Origin: Staphylococcus phage vB_StaM_PB50
Length of the DNA: 64,000 nt
Reading direction: 5' to 3' (one strand)
Sequence record: OR770614.1
A program made the translations under genes and the position numbers. Within the stretch, counting starts at the first letter, position 1. Every line of letters begins with the position of its first letter. The notes under the pieces were generated by a model. The model did not search any database and was not told where the DNA came from. It worked only from the letters and a program-made list of their open reading frames with translations. Shown piece by piece: positions 1 to 62,937 of the stretch.

Positions 1-327
1 TTATAAATATGTGTAGACTATATTAATCTTATAATAAGATCAATACACCCAAATATAACAGTACGACTTTTTGATTTTAATTAATAATCTTTTTTATTTA
101 ACTCATTTTGTCTACAATTAGCATTTATTTCCTATTCGATAACTGGGAGGTCCCAGACCTTCTGCTCTTTAATTATAAGGGTGAATTAAAGAGTCAGGCA
201 TATTTATAGACTAGTTATAAGAGCGAAGAAAGATGACATTCTCTCTTCCATTATTATAATATAAATTTAAAAATTAAATTAAAATAATAAATGTGCTTTA
301 ACATGTACTTATTAAAATTTTAAGAAA

Positions 328-7184: not shown

Positions 7185-9254
7185 TTAAACCATAAATGAA
7201 TCTAAAACTTCTTCATCTAAAGAATTGATATCAGTTTTCTCACCAGCAATTAAATTTACTAAATCTTCATCACTATCTAAATCTTTATTAGTAACTTTAA
7301 TTCTGATATCTTCTAAAGTATCTGTTCCTTCAAGAACATCAATATAATCACTAACAAATTGAACTTCACCATCAATATTAGTAACTTTAATAGTGTGACT
7401 ATCAGAGAACTCTACACTATCTACAAAAGCAAATTTAGTATTATCATTAATTAACTTGTTGATAAATAATTTACGTTTAGCAATTTCTAATTCAATATCA
7501 CCTTTACGAATTTTATCAATTCTATGTGTAGCTCCTGCATATTTAAATGATACATCCTTAGTGAATTTATTTTCTTTAATAATTTGGTATGTCATATTTA
7601 ATTTCTCCTCTTTTTTATCATTTTTAGTTTCTTCTACATGTTCTATAGTAGTTTCTTTTGATTTAATTTCTTCTTGTACTTCTTTCAATTCATCTTCATT
7701 ATTAATTTCAATAATACTTTCTTTAGGTTTAGAAATTGCATATTTTCCTTCAATTATATTTTGATATTGATTGGTAAATGCATCAACGTAATTTTTATCT
7801 TCATTGAATATTGCCTTTAATGAAGATTCTAAACTTAGTTTTAGATTTGTATATCTAGTTGAAGATGTTTTAATACGTTTACTACTATCAAATATATCTT
7901 TTCTTGAAGTGAAGACATCTTTAATATCTTCATTAAAATCAGTGTTATTATTTTCAAAAGTAATGAATTTCATTAATTTTATAACATTGAAATCATCAAG
8001 TTTTATAGTTTGATTACTTGACTGTATATATTCAAATAAGAAGTTATTGAATAAAGTATAACCTACTATATGAGTGCTAGTACTTGATGTTTCTAATATA
8101 TTCATTTTTAATGGATACTCATTTTTCTTCTTCTTAATATAACCACGTTTATTTTCTGAATTCAATAAATATGATTTTGATGTGAATTCATTAACATTAC
8201 CTTTAGAATATATTCCTGAATAAACCCCTTGAAGAAGTTCAAAAGTAAATCTCTTTAAAGTATTTTCAATATTTTCTATACCTAAGAAACTTAAGAATAA
8301 ATCATATATCAATGTCTCTCTAATAGGATGGTCATAACTAACTGATAAGAAACGTTGTCTAAATGGATTGAAATACAAATTTTCTCTAGTTAAGATACTT
8401 GTATCTCTTATCTTTTGTTCTTTTCCATTTGTGCATATAAATAAATCTACTCTAGTATCATCTCTTACATCGCTTACTTTTGGAATATTGAATAATGGAT
8501 TACTAGCGAAATAATAATCTGAACGTTGACTAAATGTAAACACTTCAGAATATGTTCTCTGTGAAAATATATCATTTCTTTCAATCTTTTCAATTAATTT
8601 ACCTTCTTTACTTCTAACATTTAGGTTAGCATCCATTAGTAAATCAAAATAATTAATTGCATCATAAGATTTATTTAATAGTTCCTCACTGTTTAGTGAG
8701 ATTAAATAACTACCTAAATTGTCTACACTTAATTCTTTATACGCTGTCATAATAGAATCTTTATTAATTTCAGCAATTAAATCGTATAATGTATTTCTTT
8801 CATAATTACCAAAACTGCTTAGTTTTTTATGGAAACTAAAATTTCCAGTTTTATAAAATTTATAAATCATTAAATTGTCAATTATACTTGATTTGACAAA
8901 TTTTAATAATGCATCTACATTTACATCGCTGTGTTTATCTTTAATATTCATTTTTGGACCATATACTCTAGTAACAAAAGGAATATTATCAATTGAATAA
9001 ATGATAAAAATATTTCTAGATTCTTCATTATTATCATTAGAAATAAATCTAAACATTGTATCTGTTATTTTATTTTCTTTCATAATATTAATAACACCAT
9101 CAAAAAGATTATCTACATTATTTACATAATCTTTATCATTTATCATTTTAGATGATTGATTAACATCCATTTCTTTCTTAAACCAACGTTTAACCTCTTT
9201 TAAACTGATATTACCTTCTGACAAATTGTTTTTCTTTAGTATTATTCTACTCAT
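7185..9254 (-). CDS. hypothetical protein, 689 aa
   Basis: Long ORF, no motif recognised. Confidence 0.5.
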   Translation of the reverse strand: MSRIILKKNNLSEGNISLKEVKRWFKKEMDVNQSSKMINDKDYVNNVDNLFDGVINIMKENKITDTMFRFISNDNNEESRNIFIIYSIDNIPFVTRVYGPKMNIKDKHSDVNVDALLKFVKSSIIDNLMIYKFYKTGNFSFHKKLSSFGNYERNTLYDLIAEINKDSIMTAYKELSVDNLGSYLISLNSEELLNKSYDAINYFDLLMDANLNVRSKEGKLIEKIERNDIFSQRTYSEVFTFSQRSDYYFASNPLFNIPKVSDVRDDTRVDLFICTNGKEQKIRDTSILTRENLYFNPFRQRFLSVSYDHPIRETLIYDLFLSFLGIENIENTLKRFTFELLQGVYSGIYSKGNVNEFTSKSYLLNSENKRGYIKKKKNEYPLKMNILETSSTSTHIVGYTLFNNFLFEYIQSSNQTIKLDDFNVIKLMKFITFENNNTDFNEDIKDVFTSRKDIFDSSKRIKTSSTRYTNLKLSLESSLKAIFNEDKNYVDAFTNQYQNIIEGKYAISKPKESIIEINNEDELKEVQEEIKSKETTIEHVEETKNDKKEEKLNMTYQIIKENKFTKDVSFKYAGATHRIDKIRKGDIELEIAKRKLFINKLINDNTKFAFVDSVEFSDSHTIKVTNIDGEVQFVSDYIDVLEGTDTLEDIRIKVTNKDLDSDEDLVNLIAGEKTDINSLDEEVLDSFMV

Positions 9255-13026: not shown

Positions 13027-13129
13027 TGTTCCTAATGAGATTCGAACTCATAACCTACAGATCCATAAATTATCCTATCCAGGTATAATTCATAAAATCC
13101 GTACACTCTGACCATTGAGCTATAGGAAC
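13027..13129 (-). tRNA. tRNA-Lys(TTT)-like gene with a 31-nt insertion in the anticodon loop (possible intron-containing tRNA or pseudogene)
   Basis: Clean acceptor stem (GTTCCTA/TAGGAAC), D-arm (GCTC-AATGGTCA-GAGT), anticodon stem (TACGG/CTGTA), T-arm (ATGAG-TTCGAAT-CTCAT). The anticodon loop region is 38 nt, not 7 nt. Confidence 0.55.
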
Positions 13130-13560: not shown

Positions 13561-13630
13561 AAGCTTATCCGAGGGATCGAACCCCGGACACATGATGAAA
13601 ATCATTGCTCTACCAACTGAGCTAGATAAA
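13561..13630 (-). tRNA. tRNA-like gene with non-canonical anticodon arm (5-bp stem ATGAT/ATCAT closing a 4-nt loop TTTC); isotype unresolved, possible pseudogene
   Basis: Classic D-arm TAGCTCAGTTGGTAGAGC, T-arm CGGGG-TTCGATC-CCTCG and 7-bp acceptor stem. Total 70 nt, 3 nt short in the anticodon loop. Confidence 0.5.
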
Positions 13631-13678
13631 CTTTCTTCATTATTATAATATATGTTTATATTTCACTATATTACGCTT

Positions 13679-14074: not shown

Positions 14075-14239
14075 AAGTTTTTTAGCTTGATCATTTTATT
14101 ATCTATATTTTACTATAGATTAGACTATATCTTATGAATTTAATCATTTCTATATTTAGTCGTTGGACAACTTTATTAAGTTGATGCTAGTTAGTTTTAA
14201 CATTCTAGCAATTAATAGAATTTATTGTGAGCATCTAAT
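14075..14239 (-). mobile_element. intron-like intervening element (conserved core family) splitting the beta-prime C-type gene in the bridge-helix region
   Basis: Contains family core TTAATTGCTAGAA...TTAACTAGCATCAAC...TTGTCCAACGACTAAATA...GATATAGTCTAAT in gene orientation. Flanking ORFs are contiguous in the beta-prime alignment (GSAGRALGTQEGG | SAFQTTVLD ~ GARKGLADTALKTAN | SGYLTRRLVD). Confidence 0.55.
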
Positions 14240-15055
14240 TTACCCACCTTCTTGAGTACCTAAAGCACGTCCAGCTGAACCAGCTGTCATAATATCACCA
14301 AACATATATAATTCTTCTGGATCAATTCCATCAGCTAAAGAACTCTTAGCAATACGTATTTTACTAGGATCAGCAAAATTTTTATTTGCTCCACGAATAA
14401 GAGCTGTTAATTTAAAGTTATTTTCAAAACTACCTCTTGATTTACTATCATAAATATCAAGATCTGCTAAACCTTCTAATTCTTCCTTACTTAACTTAAT
14501 TAATTCTTCTTCAATAGCACTAATAGCATTCAATTCTTCACCAGGAGTATTTAATGCTTTACCGTATTTCTCTAGTAATTCTTCTTTCTTTTGTTTAACT
14601 TTATCTGGAGCAACCATCATTGTAGTTGTTAAGCTAGAATTAATAAATCCTGCTATAGAGAAACCAAGCCATTGAAGTTTATCAATATACATATTCATAT
14701 CTTTAGTTGTAATAACGTCATTAAGTAATAAACTAGATAGTTCAGATTGTAGATTTCCTACACCTGATCCTCCCATATCTTTATTCATATATCCTATAAT
14801 AGGTCCTATTTTATTGTCTAATATAAATTTATTAAATATATATCTTCCAACTGTTGTTCTTTCATCTTTACTATTATAAACTAAATCTTTTTTAAGTTTA
14901 AATCTATCGCTAGGGTTAAACATTGGTTGTGTATTTTGTCTAAATGCAAATAATTCTTTAAGTTTATCAAGAGTAATATCTTCTTTTTTTATACTTAATA
15001 AAGTTGATATTTCTTTCTCAGATAAATCTTTTTTATCATAAGTCATATTAACCAA
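14240..15055 (-). CDS. RNAP beta-prime-like subunit, proximal exon or fragment (region up to bridge helix)
   Basis: C-terminal ELYMFGDIMTAGSAGRALGTQ resembles beta-prime EYFISTHGARKGLADTA (region F). Confidence 0.6.
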   Translation of the reverse strand: MVNMTYDKKDLSEKEISTLLSIKKEDITLDKLKELFAFRQNTQPMFNPSDRFKLKKDLVYNSKDERTTVGRYIFNKFILDNKIGPIIGYMNKDMGGSGVGNLQSELSSLLLNDVITTKDMNMYIDKLQWLGFSIAGFINSSLTTTMMVAPDKVKQKKEELLEKYGKALNTPGEELNAISAIEEELIKLSKEELEGLADLDIYDSKSRGSFENNFKLTALIRGANKNFADPSKIRIAKSSLADGIDPEELYMFGDIMTAGSAGRALGTQEGG

Positions 15056-18300: not shown

Positions 18301-18488
18301 CTAATAAAATTGGGGTAGTTAGACAGCTTTCATATAATTCACTAATTAAATCTACTAGAGGTTATACAGATGGTGGTAAAAAAGATGCTAATGACACATC
18401 TCTATATACTCCATTAGAACTACTTAACCCATATTCTAGTAGACATGCCGATGATCAAACATGGATAGTCGGCTTAAAAACTATTTAA
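15372..18488 (+). CDS. RNAP beta-like subunit, exon 1 or N-terminal fragment (GTG start)
   Basis: C-terminal part (SRHADDQTWIVGL) aligns with the bacterial beta region (HDDANRALMGANM); continued by two downstream ORFs carrying the next conserved beta blocks. Confidence 0.6.
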   Translation: MKYLNRLKNLKFYSISGYKIKAIDENIKDQKKNQLIIYKGFKENSFIEFLNSGILYYQNFKNIYTPRIYRTSNRKSRLITNISDYQQEIKSKSIKSYRVERNEKLFKGRNYIVDSSKFINLENKSLMTKNFKTVLDSIKNTYNNLNNPEEYENLLYVINVDGYNKSSQEAIRPNTKDFMSSLFMMIKNQEELPHKENQNVVALFVSIENGIMFKFDFKDYNKLNNRLRQRLRRAIDLNTQQMDTDEISNVEDDDNTEAIDSTIKKKSFNNVKDIDPIELQDNNKDEINQNIEDSKMEKISKKIDDTLRYIKSNDNIDMDINDEYNIAMIIEKELNDNNDLIDIDEDTLYNDVLDKNDSFKSIKRDIKNKSYIGDTALKNSKKILSLSKNQDEYLEKLEDFSFSEDSVIDREINENVNSINDEAINNVSSNDFDLSYMKKTFNKDFVNIMKSFNDKEEIPVFISKMNVEDNSDSQSLKNTVKVQFKSPDGINHNVKFDVPKIIDGKYLKLNGGKKVLTKQLMMYPIVKYRPDTVWITTNYNKFIIEKFGSKENSETEWLKKVIEDKQVLEYIKDKNDISIQKGNSSLINKEYLTSVLYNNLSKNILRFSKDDLIIDFNQRNLKKVISESKTLSEIDYDKDKYYPIGYNSNKSKLILSNTTESIIFKATKSNIESMNINITDYIIEQLEDNIDFSLIDKKFSKNIQASKTMAFSRVKITNKLIPTIVLLGFYKGLTSILDLYEVDYKFVKENERITIKDKKNKIKFQDGYLIYSTDKLRYDLLLSGLNTIPTSQYDFEEFNSETPYLEYFNDKFYSRNVGKGIKNALDLAMDPITEDVLRDLKLPETMVELLLLANTMLEDVTAREHNDMGIYRVRGPEQVNALIYKMIANAYKEYSDSYNNKNPKNISVKQDQLIKTIMEQPTVDEVSDLNPSLEIDKMTSVTFKGPAGRNNEQSYEPDIRSYSESMQGVLGISSPDSNKIGVVRQLSYNSLIKSTRGYTDGGKKDANDTSLYTPLELLNPYSSRHADDQTWIVGLKTI

Positions 18489-18626
18489 TTGCTGAAATTA
18501 CTTTAAAGTTAATCAGCATCAATCAAATTGTTCAACGACTAAATAATAGTTACTAATTATATAATTAGTAATGATATAGTCTCAACTATGTATAAAGTAT
18601 ATAGAAATAAGATAATGTCTCCACGT
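18466..18626 (+). mobile_element. intron-like intervening element in RNAP beta (approximate limits inferred from protein alignment; the ORF-to-ORF gap is 18489..18587)
   Basis: Core TTAATTGCTGAAA..TTAATCAGCATCA..TTGTTCAACGACTAAATA..GATATAGTCTCA. Joining HADDQTW to IGMTGTQAKHVIP recreates the beta motif HDDANRALMGANMQRQAVP. Confidence 0.5.
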
Positions 18627-19091
18627 ATTGGAATGACTGGTACTCAAGCCAAGCACGTAATTCCAACAAAAACTAATAGTAAACCATTAGTTGGATCTGG
18701 TGTTGATAAATCTTTAGCTTATCAATTATCAGATACATTTGCTTTTAAAGCTAAGCAAGATGGTAAAGTATTAAAAATTAATGAGAAAACTGGTTTAATG
18801 ACAGTGGAATATATCAATGGTGAAAAAGATATTGTTGATATATCTGAAAAATTAGCCAAAAACTCTAACTCAGGTTTTTATCAATCTAATAAACTTGATC
18901 CACAATTTAACGTAGACGACACTTTTAATAAAGGTCAAATACTTGCTAAAAATAATAATTTCTTTGCTGGATCTGGTAAAAATAATGATATTCAATTCAC
19001 TTCAGGTAAATTATCTAAAGTATCTGTAGCTAGCTCATATGGTATTATAAATGCCTTTCATTATAGTAATGTAATGTCAAAAAATTATTAA
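18588..19091 (+). CDS. RNAP beta-like subunit, exon 2 or fragment (KPLVGSG block)
   Basis: SKPLVGSGVDK (beta KPLVGTGME), AKQDGKVLKI, NSNSGFYQSN, ends AFHYSN-VMSKNY inside the conserved beta motif AFMPWNGYNFEDS. Confidence 0.65.
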   Translation: MYKVYRNKIMSPRIGMTGTQAKHVIPTKTNSKPLVGSGVDKSLAYQLSDTFAFKAKQDGKVLKINEKTGLMTVEYINGEKDIVDISEKLAKNSNSGFYQSNKLDPQFNVDDTFNKGQILAKNNNFFAGSGKNNDIQFTSGKLSKVSVASSYGIINAFHYSNVMSKNY

Positions 19092-19220
19092 TTGCTGAGA
19101 AATATTAAATTAATCAGCATCTCTATATTTATAGAGTTCAACGACTAAATATAATTATTCATTAATGCTAATGAATTTGATATAGTCTAATCTATTATAA
19201 AAATATAATAGCTAATATAA
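19080..19220 (+). mobile_element. intron-like intervening element in RNAP beta, second copy (ORF gap 19092..19220)
   Basis: Core TTAATTGCTGAGA..TTAATCAGCATCT..GTTCAACGACTAAATA..GATATAGTCTAAT. Flanks AFHYSN | (M)TYEDSSI recreate the beta AFMPWNGYNFEDSI. Confidence 0.5.
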
Positions 19221-19982
19221 ATGACTTATGAAGATAGTTCTATTATTTCTAGTAGTATGTCTGAAGCAATGTCTACTAAAGTTACTATGAAGAAAACAGT
19301 AAATATTCCATCAAACACAAATATTCAATATATAGTTAAAGAAGGTCAGAAAGTACGTACAGGAGATCCTTTAATGATATTTGAAACTTCATTCGATGAA
19401 GAAGGTATTGGTTCTTTATTAGATAAAATTGGTAGTGAATTTGAACAAGATATTCAAGATATAGCTAACCGAGCTGTTAGAAGTAAATATACAGGTAATA
19501 TTAAAAAGATTAATATTTATTATAATGATGATATTGAAAATATGACTGATAGTTTAGCTAAATTAGTTAATAATTACATTAAAAAATCAAATGATAAATA
19601 TAAAGAATATAAATCTGGAATTAAAAATAATAAAGAAACTTTACCTGGTATTGATGTAGATATCGCTGCAGTTGATAAAATTAATACAGAGAAAATTAAA
19701 GGGGAAAAAGTTGACGGAGTTCTTATTGAAATCTTCACTGAGTATGAAGATGATATGAGTGTTGGAGATAAAATTAGTTTCTATGGAGCTTGTAAAACTG
19801 TAGTTGCTGATGTAACTCCTCCAAATGAATCTCCTTATGCAGAATATAGACCTGATGAGGAAATCGAAGCTGTATTCTCTCCATTAAGTATTGTCTCTCG
19901 TATGACAGTTGATATTTACATGATGCTATTTACAAATAAAGCTTTAATAGAATTAAAACGTAAAGTAAAAGATATGATTTAA
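19221..19982 (+). CDS. RNAP beta-like subunit, exon 3 or fragment
   Basis: TYEDSSII (beta NFEDSIL), GDKISFYGACKTVVADV (beta GDKMAGRHGNKGVVSKI), SPLSIVSRMTVD (beta NPLGVPSRMNIG). Confidence 0.7.
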   Translation: MTYEDSSIISSSMSEAMSTKVTMKKTVNIPSNTNIQYIVKEGQKVRTGDPLMIFETSFDEEGIGSLLDKIGSEFEQDIQDIANRAVRSKYTGNIKKINIYYNDDIENMTDSLAKLVNNYIKKSNDKYKEYKSGIKNNKETLPGIDVDIAAVDKINTEKIKGEKVDGVLIEIFTEYEDDMSVGDKISFYGACKTVVADVTPPNESPYAEYRPDEEIEAVFSPLSIVSRMTVDIYMMLFTNKALIELKRKVKDMI

Positions 19983-44421: not shown

Positions 44422-45207
44422 TTATATATTATAAATCAAAAAATCTAAATTTGCTATAAATTTATCTTGAGAAATTGAAAATTTTAGTAAGATAAATTCA
44501 CTATATACATCTGTTTCCGGAGCAAAGATATCTACATGAACTTCAGGACAAACAATATTTCCTTTTGTCGTTTTATATTTTAATCCTAATAGATATTTCT
44601 TTGAAGTTCTGAAATCAATTAAATAATCATCTTCATCATAAATATAATACGGTTCTCTTACAAACATTTCATTTTCAGTAAATATACATTTAAAGAATTC
44701 AGAAGGTTTACATTCTTTAATATATAATAAAGATTTTTCATCTAAATTAAAAGAATAGAAAGGATCTGATTCTTTAAGAAATTTAATAGCATCCTCTGTA
44801 TAATTATATTCTTCATTGATATTCTCTTCAATATGATAATCTTTATCATCAATAATTGTTTCTAAATCAGATTCTCTAGTAAACTTAATACCTTTATTAT
44901 CTTCATCATTAAAGAATTCTACTTTAATAATTTTATCAGCTTTATTAGTTCTAACTTGTATAAAATCTTCTACATTAAAGCTACAATATTCAATTGGAAG
45001 AAGATAATCATAAATTGGATTATCTTCTTTAATTTGTACATTAACATTATTAGGTATAGTCTCTAAATTAGAACCATTAGTAAATACATTATTTTTGAAA
45101 TCTATCAATTTATTTCCATTTTCAATATTATTAAATAATTTAGAAATTTCTTCAAAAGTCATGACTAATTTATTTACTATTTTACTTTCTTCAATTAAAA
45201 TACTCAA
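44422..45207 (-). CDS. hypothetical protein
   Basis: ORF. Confidence 0.45.
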   Translation of the reverse strand: MSILIEESKIVNKLVMTFEEISKLFNNIENGNKLIDFKNNVFTNGSNLETIPNNVNVQIKEDNPIYDYLLPIEYCSFNVEDFIQVRTNKADKIIKVEFFNDEDNKGIKFTRESDLETIIDDKDYHIEENINEEYNYTEDAIKFLKESDPFYSFNLDEKSLLYIKECKPSEFFKCIFTENEMFVREPYYIYDEDDYLIDFRTSKKYLLGLKYKTTKGNIVCPEVHVDIFAPETDVYSEFILLKFSISQDKFIANLDFLIYNI

Positions 45208-45210
45208 AGG

Positions 45211-46152
45211 TTAAGCTCCTTTACTTTTTATTTTATCAGATACTTTCTTAGCTGCAACATTCAATGGAGGTAAACCATGAAATTCTTGAGCAAATGCTAC
45301 ACTATCTTGACTGTTAAATTTACTAATAAATTCAGTATTAAAGTCGTAATTTAATTTGTCTTCTTCATACTTAGGAACTGTCATTGTAGATTTATCTTGT
45401 ATTTGAATTTTACCTATATGTCCTTCAGGTGTTATATTATATGCTCTAATAATAGATGGATATAGAGCAGTCAAGTCAAAGTCACAAACATTACTAAATA
45501 ATCTATTAGATCTAATATCTCTACCTTTAACTAAAATATCACCCATACGTTCTATTAATGTCATATTAGCTACAAATCCACCACGTATTTTATCTGCGTT
45601 TGGATCAGATAGTATTTTAGAGTGATTATTACTTAATACATATCCTTGATTTTCAAAGAAGACAGAACTACGATTTCTTAAACAAATAGTTTTCTTAAGT
45701 GCTTTACTTGGTCTCGTTCTAGTCATATCTACAATAGAGAATAATAAATCAAACATATTAGTGTTCTTTTCTATTAAAGCAGTTAATACTGTATCTTTAA
45801 TATTGTATAGAATAAATGTATAATAATCTCTAAAATGTAAATCAGAGATAGATCCTTCATATACATCCTTTTTAATACCAGTTTCTTTTTCACCAACATC
45901 ATTTAACTTAACTGATTCCATAACACCATTTGGTTTATTTACATTTGCATATAAAGCTAATTGGTCAATCCAGTTAGTGTATGAGTTAGTTTCGAATGTA
46001 GATGATCTATTAGCTGCATCTGTAGCATTTTTATCTAATCTATAATAAGCTTTTTTATCTTGTAAATCTTTAGAACAGAAATAATCAGCTGGATCTTCTC
46101 CATTAGCTCTGATTCTTTCAAATATAGCAGGAAAATCGTAATCAAGATTCCA
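45211..46152 (-). CDS. family B DNA polymerase, distal exon (Exo II to motif A); the listed ORF 45211..45921 extends upstream in frame to about 46152
   Basis: WNLDYDFPAIFERI (Exo II WN..FD.PY) and DFDLTALYPSII (motif A DxxSLYPS). Protein stops about 60 aa after motif A, with no motif B or C. Confidence 0.7.
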   Translation of the reverse strand, partial: WNLDYDFPAIFERIRANGEDPADYFCSKDLQDKKAYYRLDKNATDAANRSSTFETNSYTNWIDQLALYANVNKPNGVMESVKLNDVGEKETGIKKDVYEGSISDLHFRDYYTFILYNIKDTVLTALIEKNTNMFDLLFSIVDMTRTRPSKALKKTICLRNRSSVFFENQGYVLSNNHSKILSDPNADKIRGGFVANMTLIERMGDILVKGRDIRSNRLFSNVCDFDLTALYPSIIRAYNITPEGHIGKIQIQDKSTMTVPKYEEDKLNYDFNTEFISKFNSQDSVAFAQEFHGLPPLNVAAKKVSDKIKSKGA

Positions 46153-46293
46153 CTTTTATTTAAATAGACTGTATCTTATTTGTTATTTAAACAAATTTCC
46201 TTATTCAGTCGTTGAACGTATATTAATACGATGCTGATTAGTTTAAACACTTCCAGCAATTAAAGGAATTTTACACGACCTAGAATTTTGATT
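46153..46293 (-). mobile_element. small intron-like element (conserved core family) in the DNA polymerase gene
   Basis: Core TTAATTGCTGGAAG..TAATCAGCATCG..GTTCAACGACTGAATA..GATACAGTCTAT. Joining the flanks gives PDVCTA|WNLDYDFP, matching the family B PDVITGWN..FD.PY. The exon side ends in U and the element ends in G. Confidence 0.55.
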
Positions 46294-46606
46294 AAGCCGT
46301 ACATACATCAGGTTTACTAATTTCATTAATATAATATAAAAATGCTTTTATAATTTCCATTTCAGATTCTAATTCATATATTTCAAATTCTAATCCTAGA
46401 TTACCAATTTTACTATTTTCATTATTATAAATATTATTTAAATCTTCTAACAGTTTACTTTTATTTTCCATAGTTTCTTTATAAGTATCTGTATCATATT
46501 TTAAAGCAAATGTTAAACATTTACGTTTACTCCAGTCAACAGCAGTTATAATATTAACTTCAGCCTCTGCTTTTTCTGGTTCAGGGACATTTATATTAAC
46601 TTTATA
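46294..46606 (-). CDS. family B DNA polymerase, middle exon (approximate limits)
   Basis: NVPEPEKAEAEVNIITAVDWSKRKCLTFALK resembles the T4 gp43 segment FPDPMKAEYEIDAITHYDSIDDRFYVFDLL as I recall it; SEMEIIKAFLYYINEISKPDVCTA is the pre-Exo II block. Confidence 0.5.
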
Positions 46607-47352
46607 CAATTGTATAAAGATTAGACTATATCTTTTAAATTCAAATATATTTCCATTTAAAATTTTTGTAAGTTTTACTATTTCTATAACCATTTGCAAC
46701 TGCTTGTATTCCTTTTCTATCTATATTTAATTCTTCCGCTGCAAATTTAGCACTTTCATATTCTTTTATAATTTTATCTGTTTCTTTATCTATTTGTGCC
46801 ACTGGTTTTCTTCTCTTTTTTAATGATTCTTCCATTTTATCAGTTTTATGAAGATTATTTTCTATAGCATGTAAATTATTTTCTAATACTGACATCCATT
46901 CTAAATTAGATAAATTATTATTTAATTTATTACCGTCAATATGATTAACTACATTTTTATCAATATCTTTATTTTCGATAAAATTCTCTGCAACTAAACG
47001 GTGTATTCTTCTTGTATGCTTCTTATTATTTTTATATAATTGAACATCTTCATAACCATTTTTATTTATTCTTGTCTTTAATACTCTTTCTTTAATAAGC
47101 ATTCTTTTATCTTTACCTTTTAAAGAATCATTATATACATATCTTGAAACCGATTTAACTTTACCAGTATTGGATATTTTATAGTAATTTTCAAAATCTT
47201 TAATGTCTTTCCATATTTCTTTCATTATTTTCCTCCTTTTATAAAGGAAGTATATTTGAATTATATTATTATATTTAGTCGTTGAACACTAAATTAGTGA
47301 TGCTGATTATTTTTAAACTTTTCAGCAATTAATAATTTTTTAATTGAGCTAC
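46607..47352 (-). mobile_element. intron-like element of the same core family carrying an HNH homing endonuclease ORF
   Basis: 5' part has core TTAATTGCTGAAAAG..TAATCAGCATCA..GTTCAACGACTAAATA followed by SD and HNH ORF. 3' part has GATATAGTCTAATC. Interrupts the polymerase just after Exo I. Confidence 0.6.
46641..47225 (-). CDS. HNH homing endonuclease (NUMOD4-like N-terminus plus HNH_3)
   Basis: WKDIKDFENYYKISNTGKV; HRLVAENFI...NHIDGNKLNNNLSNLEW HNH motif; strong SD AAAGGAGG. Confidence 0.8.
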   Translation of the reverse strand: MKEIWKDIKDFENYYKISNTGKVKSVSRYVYNDSLKGKDKRMLIKERVLKTRINKNGYEDVQLYKNNKKHTRRIHRLVAENFIENKDIDKNVVNHIDGNKLNNNLSNLEWMSVLENNLHAIENNLHKTDKMEESLKKRRKPVAQIDKETDKIIKEYESAKFAAEELNIDRKGIQAVANGYRNSKTYKNFKWKYI

Positions 47353-47844
47353 CTAAATTAACCCAACTGTTTGCGAAGAATCAACTTCTATATCAAAGAA
47401 AACTATATCAATTCCAACTTTACTATCTAAGTTTTGTTTGATATACTCATTAATATTATAATCTTCAATATTAATATCAGATCCATGAACATTATTCATT
47501 AAATGAAAATCTTTTAATTTTCTAAACTCTTCATAATTACCTGAAGATAATATTCTATCGTATTCTGATTTATCTTGAGCATTACCTGCTTCTCTAACTA
47601 TAGATTTAATAACATCTTTATGTTTACAGTGTACAGTTCTAACTTTTTCTTTAGCCATAGAACCTACAACTATATTAGGTGGTAACCAATGTTCATCTTT
47701 AGTTACATAATAATGCATCATAGGATCTACTATTTCCATATGTTTCTTAGTTCCATCTTCTTCTTTGACTACCATTACTACTTTTTCTTTTTTATTAGAT
47801 GTTTCTTTTTTATTCAAATATGTTGATTTTATAAAACGACCCAT
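47353..47844 (-). CDS. family B DNA polymerase, first exon (Exo I motif)
   Basis: GIDIVFFDIEVDS (Exo I FDIE). Confidence 0.65.
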   Translation of the reverse strand: MGRFIKSTYLNKKETSNKKEKVVMVVKEEDGTKKHMEIVDPMMHYYVTKDEHWLPPNIVVGSMAKEKVRTVHCKHKDVIKSIVREAGNAQDKSEYDRILSSGNYEEFRKLKDFHLMNNVHGSDINIEDYNINEYIKQNLDSKVGIDIVFFDIEVDSSQTVGLI

Positions 47845-62485: not shown

Positions 62486-62521
62486 AATTATTCTTTAGTT
62501 AAAGAATATAAAGCTTGTACC
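62486..62521 (-). CDS. RNAP beta-prime N-type gene, terminal mini-exon (MVQALYSLTKE)
   Basis: VQALYSLTKE aligns to beta-prime DVVLGLYYMTR, which directly follows the block ending the previous exon (..PSQ); 11 codons then stop. Confidence 0.5.
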
Positions 62522-62644
62522 ATATATTTATGATAATTAGACTATATCTTATGATATTTAAATCATTTTCATATTTAGTCGTTGAACAACTTTTATTAAG
62601 TTGATGCTGATTAATTTTGTTTTTCCAGCAATTAATGAAATTTA
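62522..62644 (-). mobile_element. intron-like element (core family) in the beta-prime N gene, copy C
   Basis: Core TTAATTGCTGGAAAAAC..TTAATCAGCATCAAC..GTTGTTCAACGACTAAATA..GATATAGTCTAAT between ..FVCSQ and (M)VQALYSLTKE. Confidence 0.55.
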
Positions 62645-62778
62645 TTGAGAGCATACAAACTTACTCTCATTACCAACTCCACGTATACTATTTCCTGTGT
62701 AGTTTAAGTAATTAGTTTTCTTATTAATAAGTTTATCAGCTTCTTTATTTGCTTCTACAGACCATAAAGAGCGTATTG
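62645..62778 (-). CDS. RNAP beta-prime N-type gene, exon (DMISIRSLWSVEANKEADKLINKKTNYLNYTGNSIRGVGNESKFVCSQ)
   Basis: Aligns with beta-prime [41 protein letters not shown], immediately after the NADFDGD motif. Confidence 0.6.
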
Positions 62779-62937
62779 AAATCATATCCATTTTATATAC
62801 ATGTATTTACATATAATTAGACTATATCTTCTTTAGTAATATATTTAGTCGTTGAACAACTTTTATTAAGTTGATGCTGATTATCTTATAGATTTTCCAG
62901 CAATTAATATTATTTAATGATGGTAATATAAAATTTT
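62779..62937 (-). mobile_element. intron-like element (core family) in the beta-prime N gene, copy B, inserted within the catalytic NADFDGD motif
   Basis: Upstream exon ends ..YAQALGADFDG; the next exon begins D-MISIRS. The element ends ..AAAATG immediately before GATATGATT. Confidence 0.55.

Follow-up and report, generated by a model that had tools for sequence, protein, structure and literature searches.

The gene for the exonuclease subunit of a family-B DNA polymerase is interrupted twice in Staphylococcus phage vB_StaM_PB50 (sequence record OR770614.1), within the 64,000-nucleotide (nt) stretch of DNA that was analysed here and that we call the window. Both insertions belong to a single family of group I introns and have the catalytic core intact, and we consider it very probable (about 0.9) that both must leave the polymerase mRNA to yield a single protein of 572 amino acids. 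Intron 1 is a small ribozyme of about 150 nt, of the same family as intron 2, which carries an HNH homing endonuclease gene in its P8 loop and thereby reaches 773 nt; intron 2 is a minimal copy of 142 nt. That the polymerase gene of such phages is interrupted was already known, and the intron with the endonuclease gene is typical of a long-established type. What this analysis adds is the intron class, a precise RNA anatomy and the minimal size.

The gene runs on the minus strand from an ATG at 47844 to a stop codon at 45211, a span that had already been proposed in the first-pass annotation, a reading of the sequence and its open reading frames (ORFs) made without database searches, and that our own reading bears out. 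A 3-kb region around the locus shares 95.7% identity with Staphylococcus phage Machias and 80-93% identity with AH12, LY01, Madawaska, MarsHill, PALS_2, DC4, S6 and SA1, and all nine relatives are Staphylococcus jumbo phages of the AR9/PBS1-like group. We set the intron junctions by alignment to alleles without the insertion, from MarsHill, Madawaska and AH12. The MarsHill allele is uninterrupted, reading ...GTAACAGGAT|TCCCGGAT... at site 1 and ...TGTACGGCATGGAAT|CTAGAT... at site 2. Intron 1 accordingly occupies 47360..46588 (minus strand, 773 nt); the exon before it ends in GUUGGGU, the intron itself ends in AAAUG, with its terminal G at 46588, and the next exon starts with UCCCUGAA. Intron 2 occupies 46294..46153 (minus strand, 142 nt), between an exon ending in UACGGCU and one starting with UGGAAU, and it ends in AAAAG, with its terminal G at 46153. 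The first-pass annotation had drawn intron 1 at the ends of an ORF, at 47352..46607, which the MarsHill alignment corrects by 8 nt at the 5′ end and by 19 nt at the 3′ end, and it had begun exon 2 at VNINVPEPEK, where the real start is (F)PEPEK. For intron 2 its junction, PDVCTA|WNLDYDFP, was right and its length of 141 nt was not, since the alignment gives 142 nt. Two of its observations hold at the junctions fixed in this way: in both introns the exon ends in U and the intron in G, and a common core is found in both insertions, in the form of AATTGCTG, AATCAGCA, GTTCAACGACT and GATA(T/C)AGTC. It had also suggested a comparison with related phages that lack the insertions, and for both sites there are sister alleles from which the insertion is missing base for base.

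Exon 1 (47361..47844, minus strand), which includes the Exo I motif, begins with the ATG and ends in ...FDIEVDSSQTVG followed by a U, the first base of a Phe codon. It was delimited by alignment to the intronless MarsHill and Madawaska alleles, by the in-frame join and by alignment to the RB69 polymerase. Exon 2 (46295..46587, minus strand), which rests on allele alignment, on the join and on the RB69 alignment, extends from (F)PEPEKAEAEVNIITAVDW to ...ISKPDVCTA. Exon 3 (45211..46152, minus strand) encodes WNLDYDFPAIF (Exo II), YNIKD (Exo III) and DFDLTALYPSII (motif A), and ends with the stop codon. The predicted ligated junctions are ...GUUGGGU|UCCCUGAA... between exons 1 and 2 and ...UACGGCU|UGGAAUCU... 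between exons 2 and 3. Joined together, the three exons give 1719 nt, free of stop codons, for 572 amino acids, and the spliced product is colinear with the RB69/T4 DNA polymerase through both junctions (GFPEP; TAWNLDYDFP): in this alignment FDIEVDSSQTVGFPEPEKAEAEVNIITAVD stands opposite FDIEVTSPDGFPEPSQAKHPIDAITHYD at one junction, and KPDVCTAWNLDYDFPAIFERI spans the other. The product also matched the full profile of phrog_3011 'DNA polymerase' (E = 1.4e-58), and the family B motifs FDIEV, WNLDYDFP, YNIKD and DFDLTALYPS align with those of the RB69/T4 polymerase, so that Exo I-III and motif A are all present. These matches came from PHROGs and PDB sequence searches, and a Pfam search of the spliced polymerase returned no match. 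The protein stops about 80 amino acids past motif A, while polymerase motifs B and C (KxxxNSxYG, YGDTDS) are encoded nowhere in the 64-kb window, and the adjacent ORF of 261 amino acids (44422-45207) had no Pfam or PHROG match. Because motifs B and C are absent from the window, we take the polymerase to be split, with a second subunit encoded elsewhere. The annotation of the gene in sister phages is 'exonuclease subunit/domain protein'.

The assignment to group I begins with the guide sequences. In intron 1 the guide consists of UUUAGGUA (P10, 47357..47350) followed by GCUCAA (P1, 47349..47344), and in intron 2 of AUUCUA (P10, 46286..46281) followed by GGUCGU (P1, 46280..46275), all on the minus strand; in both introns the P10 part thus lies directly 5′ of the P1 part. 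P1 pairs UUGGGU with GCUCAA in intron 1 and ACGGCU with GGUCGU in intron 2, and each helix is closed by a U•G pair. As read from the sequence, P10 of intron 2 pairs AUUCUA with UGGAAU at 6 of 6 base pairs (bp), and P10 of intron 1 pairs UUUAGGUA with UCCCUGAA at 7 of 8 bp. When the guides of 11 introns of the family were compared, each paired with its own exon at -6.6 kcal/mol and with the other exons at -2.4 kcal/mol, a specificity that none of 20000 permutations reached. At the intron-1 site of LY01, P1 shows a compensatory change, with CUGGGU paired to GCUCAG.

The second line of evidence is covariation in the core. We assembled 19 distinct copies from the window, Madawaska, AH12, LY01 and IMG/VR contigs and aligned them with MAFFT, the alignment not being fitted to the structure, and we counted pairs in P3, P4, P6, P7 and P8, with P3/P7 treated as a pseudoknot. 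In these five helices 94.4% of the cells were paired, against 73% after column shuffles and 28-48% in slid registers. Changes on both sides were found in 19 of the 29 helix pairs, and no shuffle (0/500) matched any of the observed measures; cross-permutation of the helix halves gave 0/20000 for each of P3, P6 and P8. The P, Q, R and S blocks, AAUUGCUG, AAUCAGCA, GUUCAACGACU and AAGAUA(U/C)AGUC, align to the Rfam consensus and are invariant or nearly so across the 19 copies, and every copy preserves the joining segments J3/4, J4/5, J6/7 and J8/7, the P7 pair that binds G, and the G at the end of the intron. The alternative that the first-pass annotation had set against an intron core, in which the conserved blocks are promoter or protein-binding sites, is excluded by this helix covariation taken with the exon-specific guide sequences.

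The core of intron 2 (46273..46165, minus strand) comprises P3, P4, a vestigial P5, P6, P7 and P8. The intron has neither P2 nor P9, there being just 13 nt from P7 to the terminal G, and its G+C content is about 26%. Rfam RF00028 aligns to it end-to-end with 30.7 bits (E = 1.5e-5 in a 1.6-kb search), with the P/Q/R/S blocks near consensus, and a covariance model of the family, R1, scores it at 99.4 bits. At the pair that closes P7, 123 of 125 cores have A-U, and intron 2 alone has G-C, a compensatory pair. When the 142-nt sequence was compared by blastn with the phage collection, nothing above 75% identity and no orthologue at the polymerase site was found; the matches, at or below 75%, were all to other small introns, in five Staphylococcus jumbo phages.

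Intron 1 has the same kind of core, opened in a single place. Its P block starts at 47330, its R block lies at 47287..47277 and its S block at 46633..46622, and a P9 hairpin is formed by CUUUAUAC/GUAUAAAG (all on the minus strand). The two strands of P8, as read from the sequence, are AAUUCAAAU (47262..47254), which follows the R block and P3's 3′ strand, and AUUUGAAUU (46646..46638). Between them, in a loop of about 600 nt, lies a homing endonuclease gene for 194 amino acids (46641..47225, minus strand), which has its own Shine-Dalgarno sequence, AAAGGAGG, and whose stop codon falls within the 3′ strand of P8. The first-pass annotation had recognized here an I-HmuI-like HNH ORF with a Shine-Dalgarno sequence, and domain searches agree: the product scores 56.3 bits for NUMOD4 (Pfam cut-off 23.4) and 35.5 bits for HNH_3 (cut-off 24.8), and it matches I-HmuI (PDB 1U3E) with E = 3e-23 over 187 amino acids (residues 5-191), keeping HRLVA...H.DGNK.NN..NL.W. 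An I-HmuI_NUMOD-like tail scores 23.6 bits, under the Pfam cut-off of 27. Intron 1 of Machias differs from that of the window at 4 of 773 positions.

Both polymerase sites are polymorphic among the sister phages. At site 1, the window and Machias have the 773-nt intron with its HNH gene, AH12 has an intron of 154 nt, LY01 has one of 142 nt that lacks P8, and Madawaska and MarsHill are empty. Site 2 is in fact two sites: at 2A, after ACGGCU, the window has its 142-nt intron, Machias has one of 1087 nt, and AH12, LY01, Madawaska and MarsHill are empty; at 2B, 6 nt downstream and after UGGAAU, LY01 and Madawaska have an intron of 153 nt, and the window, Machias, AH12 and MarsHill are empty. Thus three states, namely empty, small copy and endonuclease-bearing copy, are seen across nine related phages, and sites at conserved motifs that are empty, occupied or differently occupied are the usual signature of mobile introns. 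When the 154-nt intron of AH12 is set against the ribozyme parts of the 773-nt intron of the window, 137 of 153 positions agree, and where the window has the endonuclease ORF there is a short hairpin at P8. This copy is direct evidence for the earlier suggestion that small introns are endonuclease-less relatives of a single intron, whether by loss or by gain of the endonuclease gene. At site 2 we considered whether intron 2 could be the 1087-nt intron of Machias minus its ORF, and rejected it, since the two share the guide and the P4 and P7 blocks only and the Machias intron has large extra domains; the 142-nt copy is not simply a derivative of that kind. Two very different group I introns therefore use the same guide sequence at the same insertion site. 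In the Machias 2A intron (L001 3163-4249), the P6 region, which lies between the Q and R blocks, holds a gene for an endonuclease of 253 amino acids, different from that of intron 1; long, G+C-richer extensions come after the R block.

The exon sequence beside the introns is mosaic between phages, as we observed when window positions 46050-47450 were compared with five sister sequences. In the 16 nt before intron 1, for example, the window is identical to Machias and unlike AH12 and MarsHill, and over roughly the first 25 nt of exon 3 it differs from Machias. This mosaicism looks like co-conversion tracts left by homing or by recombination.

The family extends beyond the polymerase gene. A core covariance model run over the whole window with filters off found exactly eight copies and no ninth, and for GTTCAACGACT, with up to one mismatch allowed, there are 8 occurrences against 0.3 expected. 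Seven of the eight introns measure 142-183 nt, they lie in RNA polymerase and DNA polymerase genes, and the G+C content of the introns is 19-26%. Three are found in the gene that encodes the beta' subunit of the virion RNA polymerase, on the minus strand, with junctions set against the intronless allele of phage S6: 63140..63322 (183 nt), 62789..62937 (149 nt), which lies within the catalytic motif ADFDG|D, and 62521..62662 (142 nt). Two more, at 18453..18617 (165 nt) and 19065..19223 (159 nt) on the plus strand, share an RNA polymerase beta-like gene, and another, at 14092..14241 (150 nt, minus strand), lies in a beta'-like C-terminal gene; the junctions of these three were predicted from P1 and the reading frame only. 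The intron at 62789-62937 departs from the others in two respects. Its upstream exon ends in C (GAUGGC|AAAA), opposite an A in the guide ACCAUCA, so that C•A stands where U•G is nearly universal, and the S6 allele has GGT at the insertion point. It also has no P8 hairpin, the spacing from the R to the S block being just 18 nt. Other copies without P8, in which this gap is 17-18 nt, are LY01 903-1044, L024 8104-8211 and 8391-8498, and L101 1525-1620. The core can apparently be reduced even below that of the 142-nt polymerase copy.

Two further block matches in the window were rejected as members of the family. The P block is matched exactly at 8768..8780 (minus strand), but this is coding sequence without Q, R and S blocks and the match is due to chance, and an S-like block, TAATATAGTCTA, at 14..25 (minus strand) gave no match to the family covariance model. 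The latter sits downstream of a G+C-rich stem, ggtctgggacctcccag (window 1-200), and the region may belong to another, larger intron, of which the edge of the window leaves the 3′ part. We also noted two unusual tRNA-like genes on the minus strand. The one at 13027-13129 scores 52.5 bits with the Rfam tRNA model, was not called by ARAGORN and has a 34-nt insert in its anticodon loop, which is far too short for a group I intron. The other, at 13561-13632, was reported by ARAGORN as 'tRNA-???' with a two-base anticodon (tt), and scores 45.8 bits with Rfam, with a shortened anticodon loop.

Splicing of the polymerase transcript would follow the established chemistry of group I introns. The guide would pair with the upstream exon over its last 6-7 bases to form P1, closed by the U•G wobble, and a free guanosine held in P7 would attack after the splice-site U. 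The terminal G of the intron would then enter the same site in P7, with P10 positioning the downstream exon, and the exons would be ligated. In SPO1 and SP82, nicking of intronless alleles by I-HmuI drives homing. By analogy, the HNH enzyme of intron 1 presumably nicks the intronless polymerase alleles of co-infecting relatives, so that repair would copy the intron into them. For the spread or persistence of copies without an endonuclease, co-conversion in the course of recombination, cleavage in trans by other endonucleases and shielding of the site from an endonuclease (such as that of Machias 2A) are candidate explanations. A chaperone or another cofactor is probably needed for efficient splicing in the cell, as we conjecture because the ribozymes have only 19-26% G+C and lack peripheral stabilizing elements. 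Machias, which is a plaque-forming isolate, shares with the window the three small introns of the virion RNA polymerase beta' gene (99.3% identity), and since it forms plaques with three introns in an essential RNA polymerase gene, splicing would appear to work in the cell.

Several points weigh against this reading. What the sequences themselves show is how the introns are built, where their junctions lie, that their helices covary and that their presence or absence is polymorphic, and it is from these that we infer splicing and endonuclease activity. One sister copy has a weak P1 of 4 bp only. The small introns are without the peripheral elements P2, P7.1/P7.2 and P9, and their P5 has only 2-3 bp; because the stabilizing periphery of characterized phage introns is absent, autonomous self-splicing in vitro is uncertain. 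All eight introns, furthermore, score 22-33 bits (e.g. 30.7, 32.6, 27.8, 21.9) against an Rfam gathering score of 50. None of the eight was found by Rfam at the gathering threshold, nor at E <= 1 across the whole window, and Rfam finds them only when short stretches are searched. This shortfall reflects missing peripheral positions and not a failed core feature. Such sub-threshold scores fit the report that the single Rfam group I model captures the diversity of subtypes poorly (PMC6125680).

The same observations could be taken to mean that the small element is a decayed remnant, which is removed only with help in trans, whether from a maturase or chaperone of the phage or host or from the ribozyme of a sister intron. 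We hold this to be a serious possibility, although one somewhat short of even chances. It draws on the low G+C content (19-26%) and the low Rfam scores, on the lack of P2 and P9 and of any GNRA tetraloop or receptor that we could see, on the copies that are without even P8, and on the finding that in most group I introns the core is steadied by recruited peripheral RNA or proteins (PMC2813881). However, the core junctions, the P7 pair for G binding and the G at the intron end have all been kept, and together with the compensatory changes they argue for ongoing selection on the fold; moreover, this explanation departs from two functional group I introns only in the amount of help that is required. 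Jumbo phages of the AR9/PBS1 group do divide their RNA and DNA polymerases into several genes, and the window polymerase already lacks motifs B and C, which might suggest that the polymerase is truly split here into three separately translated pieces, with the conserved blocks acting as regulatory, promoter or protein-binding sites between cistrons. We regard this as very improbable. The first ATG of exon 3 is at 45921, downstream of Exo II, and since no start codon precedes it this motif is translatable only after splicing and would be lost from a separate third piece; exon 2 offers only a TTG, which lies inside the intron. Nor would such an arrangement explain insertions that are missing base for base from sister alleles, blocks that belong to a covarying, pseudoknotted structure and guides that match each flanking exon. 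Still less credible is a view of the small copies as miniature repeats at the DNA level, which resemble an intron core and are tolerated in a dead copy of the gene. Eight dispersed copies of about 140-180 nt do have the look of such repeats, but all eight preserve the reading frame, lie at catalytic motifs of essential genes and are on the coding strand each time, their helices covary at the RNA level, and we saw no second intact gene for the polymerase exonuclease. Two group I introns that have to be removed from the polymerase mRNA remain the explanation that we prefer.

Gene interruptions at this locus have been annotated before. The GenBank records MW349128/MW349129 join three exons and list two homing endonuclease genes for gene 137 of Machias, and for gene 137 of Madawaska they join two exons around a gap of 153 nt; the joins of both were 'predicted based on alignment to YP_009283036', that is, by protein alignment. 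On the jumbo phages Machias, Madawaska and MarsHill there is a preprint by Korn et al. (bioRxiv 10.1101/2020.12.14.422802), in which DNA polymerase subunits are named as genes disrupted by introns; the terms 'group I', 'ribozyme' and 'self-splicing' occur nowhere in it. At the site of intron 2 the phages also differ in what is there to be annotated, 1087 nt in Machias versus 142 nt in the window, the small intron of Madawaska being inserted 6 nt downstream. In a sister-phage genome, Rfam was reported to find no introns (PMC10638138). Because introns of this family score below the Rfam threshold, phage annotations probably undercount them, and relatives of the family occur on large metagenomic viral contigs.

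The significance of these introns lies in a complete group I core held within 142 nt, some 60 nt below that of Azoarcus, and in the presence of eight copies per 64 kb at catalytic motifs. If the small introns self-splice, the minimal natural group I fold would have to be redefined; if they do not, the phage or the host must supply a splicing cofactor that has gone unrecognized. A ribozyme of this size would help to define what the fold requires and to search jumbo phages for splicing cofactors, and it would offer RNA circularization tools a compact scaffold. The three site states in nine phages also offer a clean system in which to follow the cycle of intron and endonuclease gain and loss.

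Group I introns with nicking HNH endonucleases are known from the DNA polymerase genes of phages SPO1/SP82 (I-HmuI, I-HmuII), Bastille (I-BasI) and Pf-WMP3 (I-PfoP3I) (PMC12908238). Intron 1 resembles these in its location in a conserved part of a phage DNA polymerase gene, and in carrying an I-HmuI homologue with its own ribosome-binding site, the gene being placed in a loop of the ribozyme. It differs from them in its host gene, which encodes the exonuclease subunit of a family-B polymerase, and in its ribozyme of about 150 nt, which has no P2 or P7.1/P7.2.

The sizes of the small introns can be set beside those of relatives in other viruses. In IMG/VR viral contigs the P-Q-R core gave 134 matches, in which the gap between the R and S blocks was mostly 40-120 nt and was under 45 nt in 10 only. 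The small introns of the window belong to this last class, several members of which are found on IMG/VR contigs of 166-401 kb, and they show no evident tetraloop-receptor pairs. Our full-text searches returned no description of such small phage group I introns in the literature that they covered. We suggest, tentatively and at slightly less than even odds, that among natural group I ribozymes with a complete core the smallest may be these introns, AT-rich and 142-183 nt long, which spread in genes essential to jumbo phages and escape standard Rfam annotation.

The intron of the Azoarcus pre-tRNA-Ile, a member of subgroup IC3, is G+C-rich and keeps P2 and P9 with tetraloop-receptor contacts. 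At 205 nt, it has been termed compact, and it is without several peripheral domains (PMC13168695). The phage introns are likewise naturally reduced with a complete catalytic core; however, the Azoarcus intron is about 60 nt longer, whereas the phage introns have 142-183 nt and 19-26% G+C, and intron 2 lacks both P2 and P9. Most group I introns exceed 200 nt, and at the other extreme the fungal rDNA of Phialophora contains degenerate, putative group I introns of 56-81 nt that keep P1, P7 and P10 only (PMC3160393). The phage introns are similar to these in being very short and in their assignment to group I but, in contrast to them, they retain P3, P4, P6, P7 and P8 together with all of the conserved junctions.

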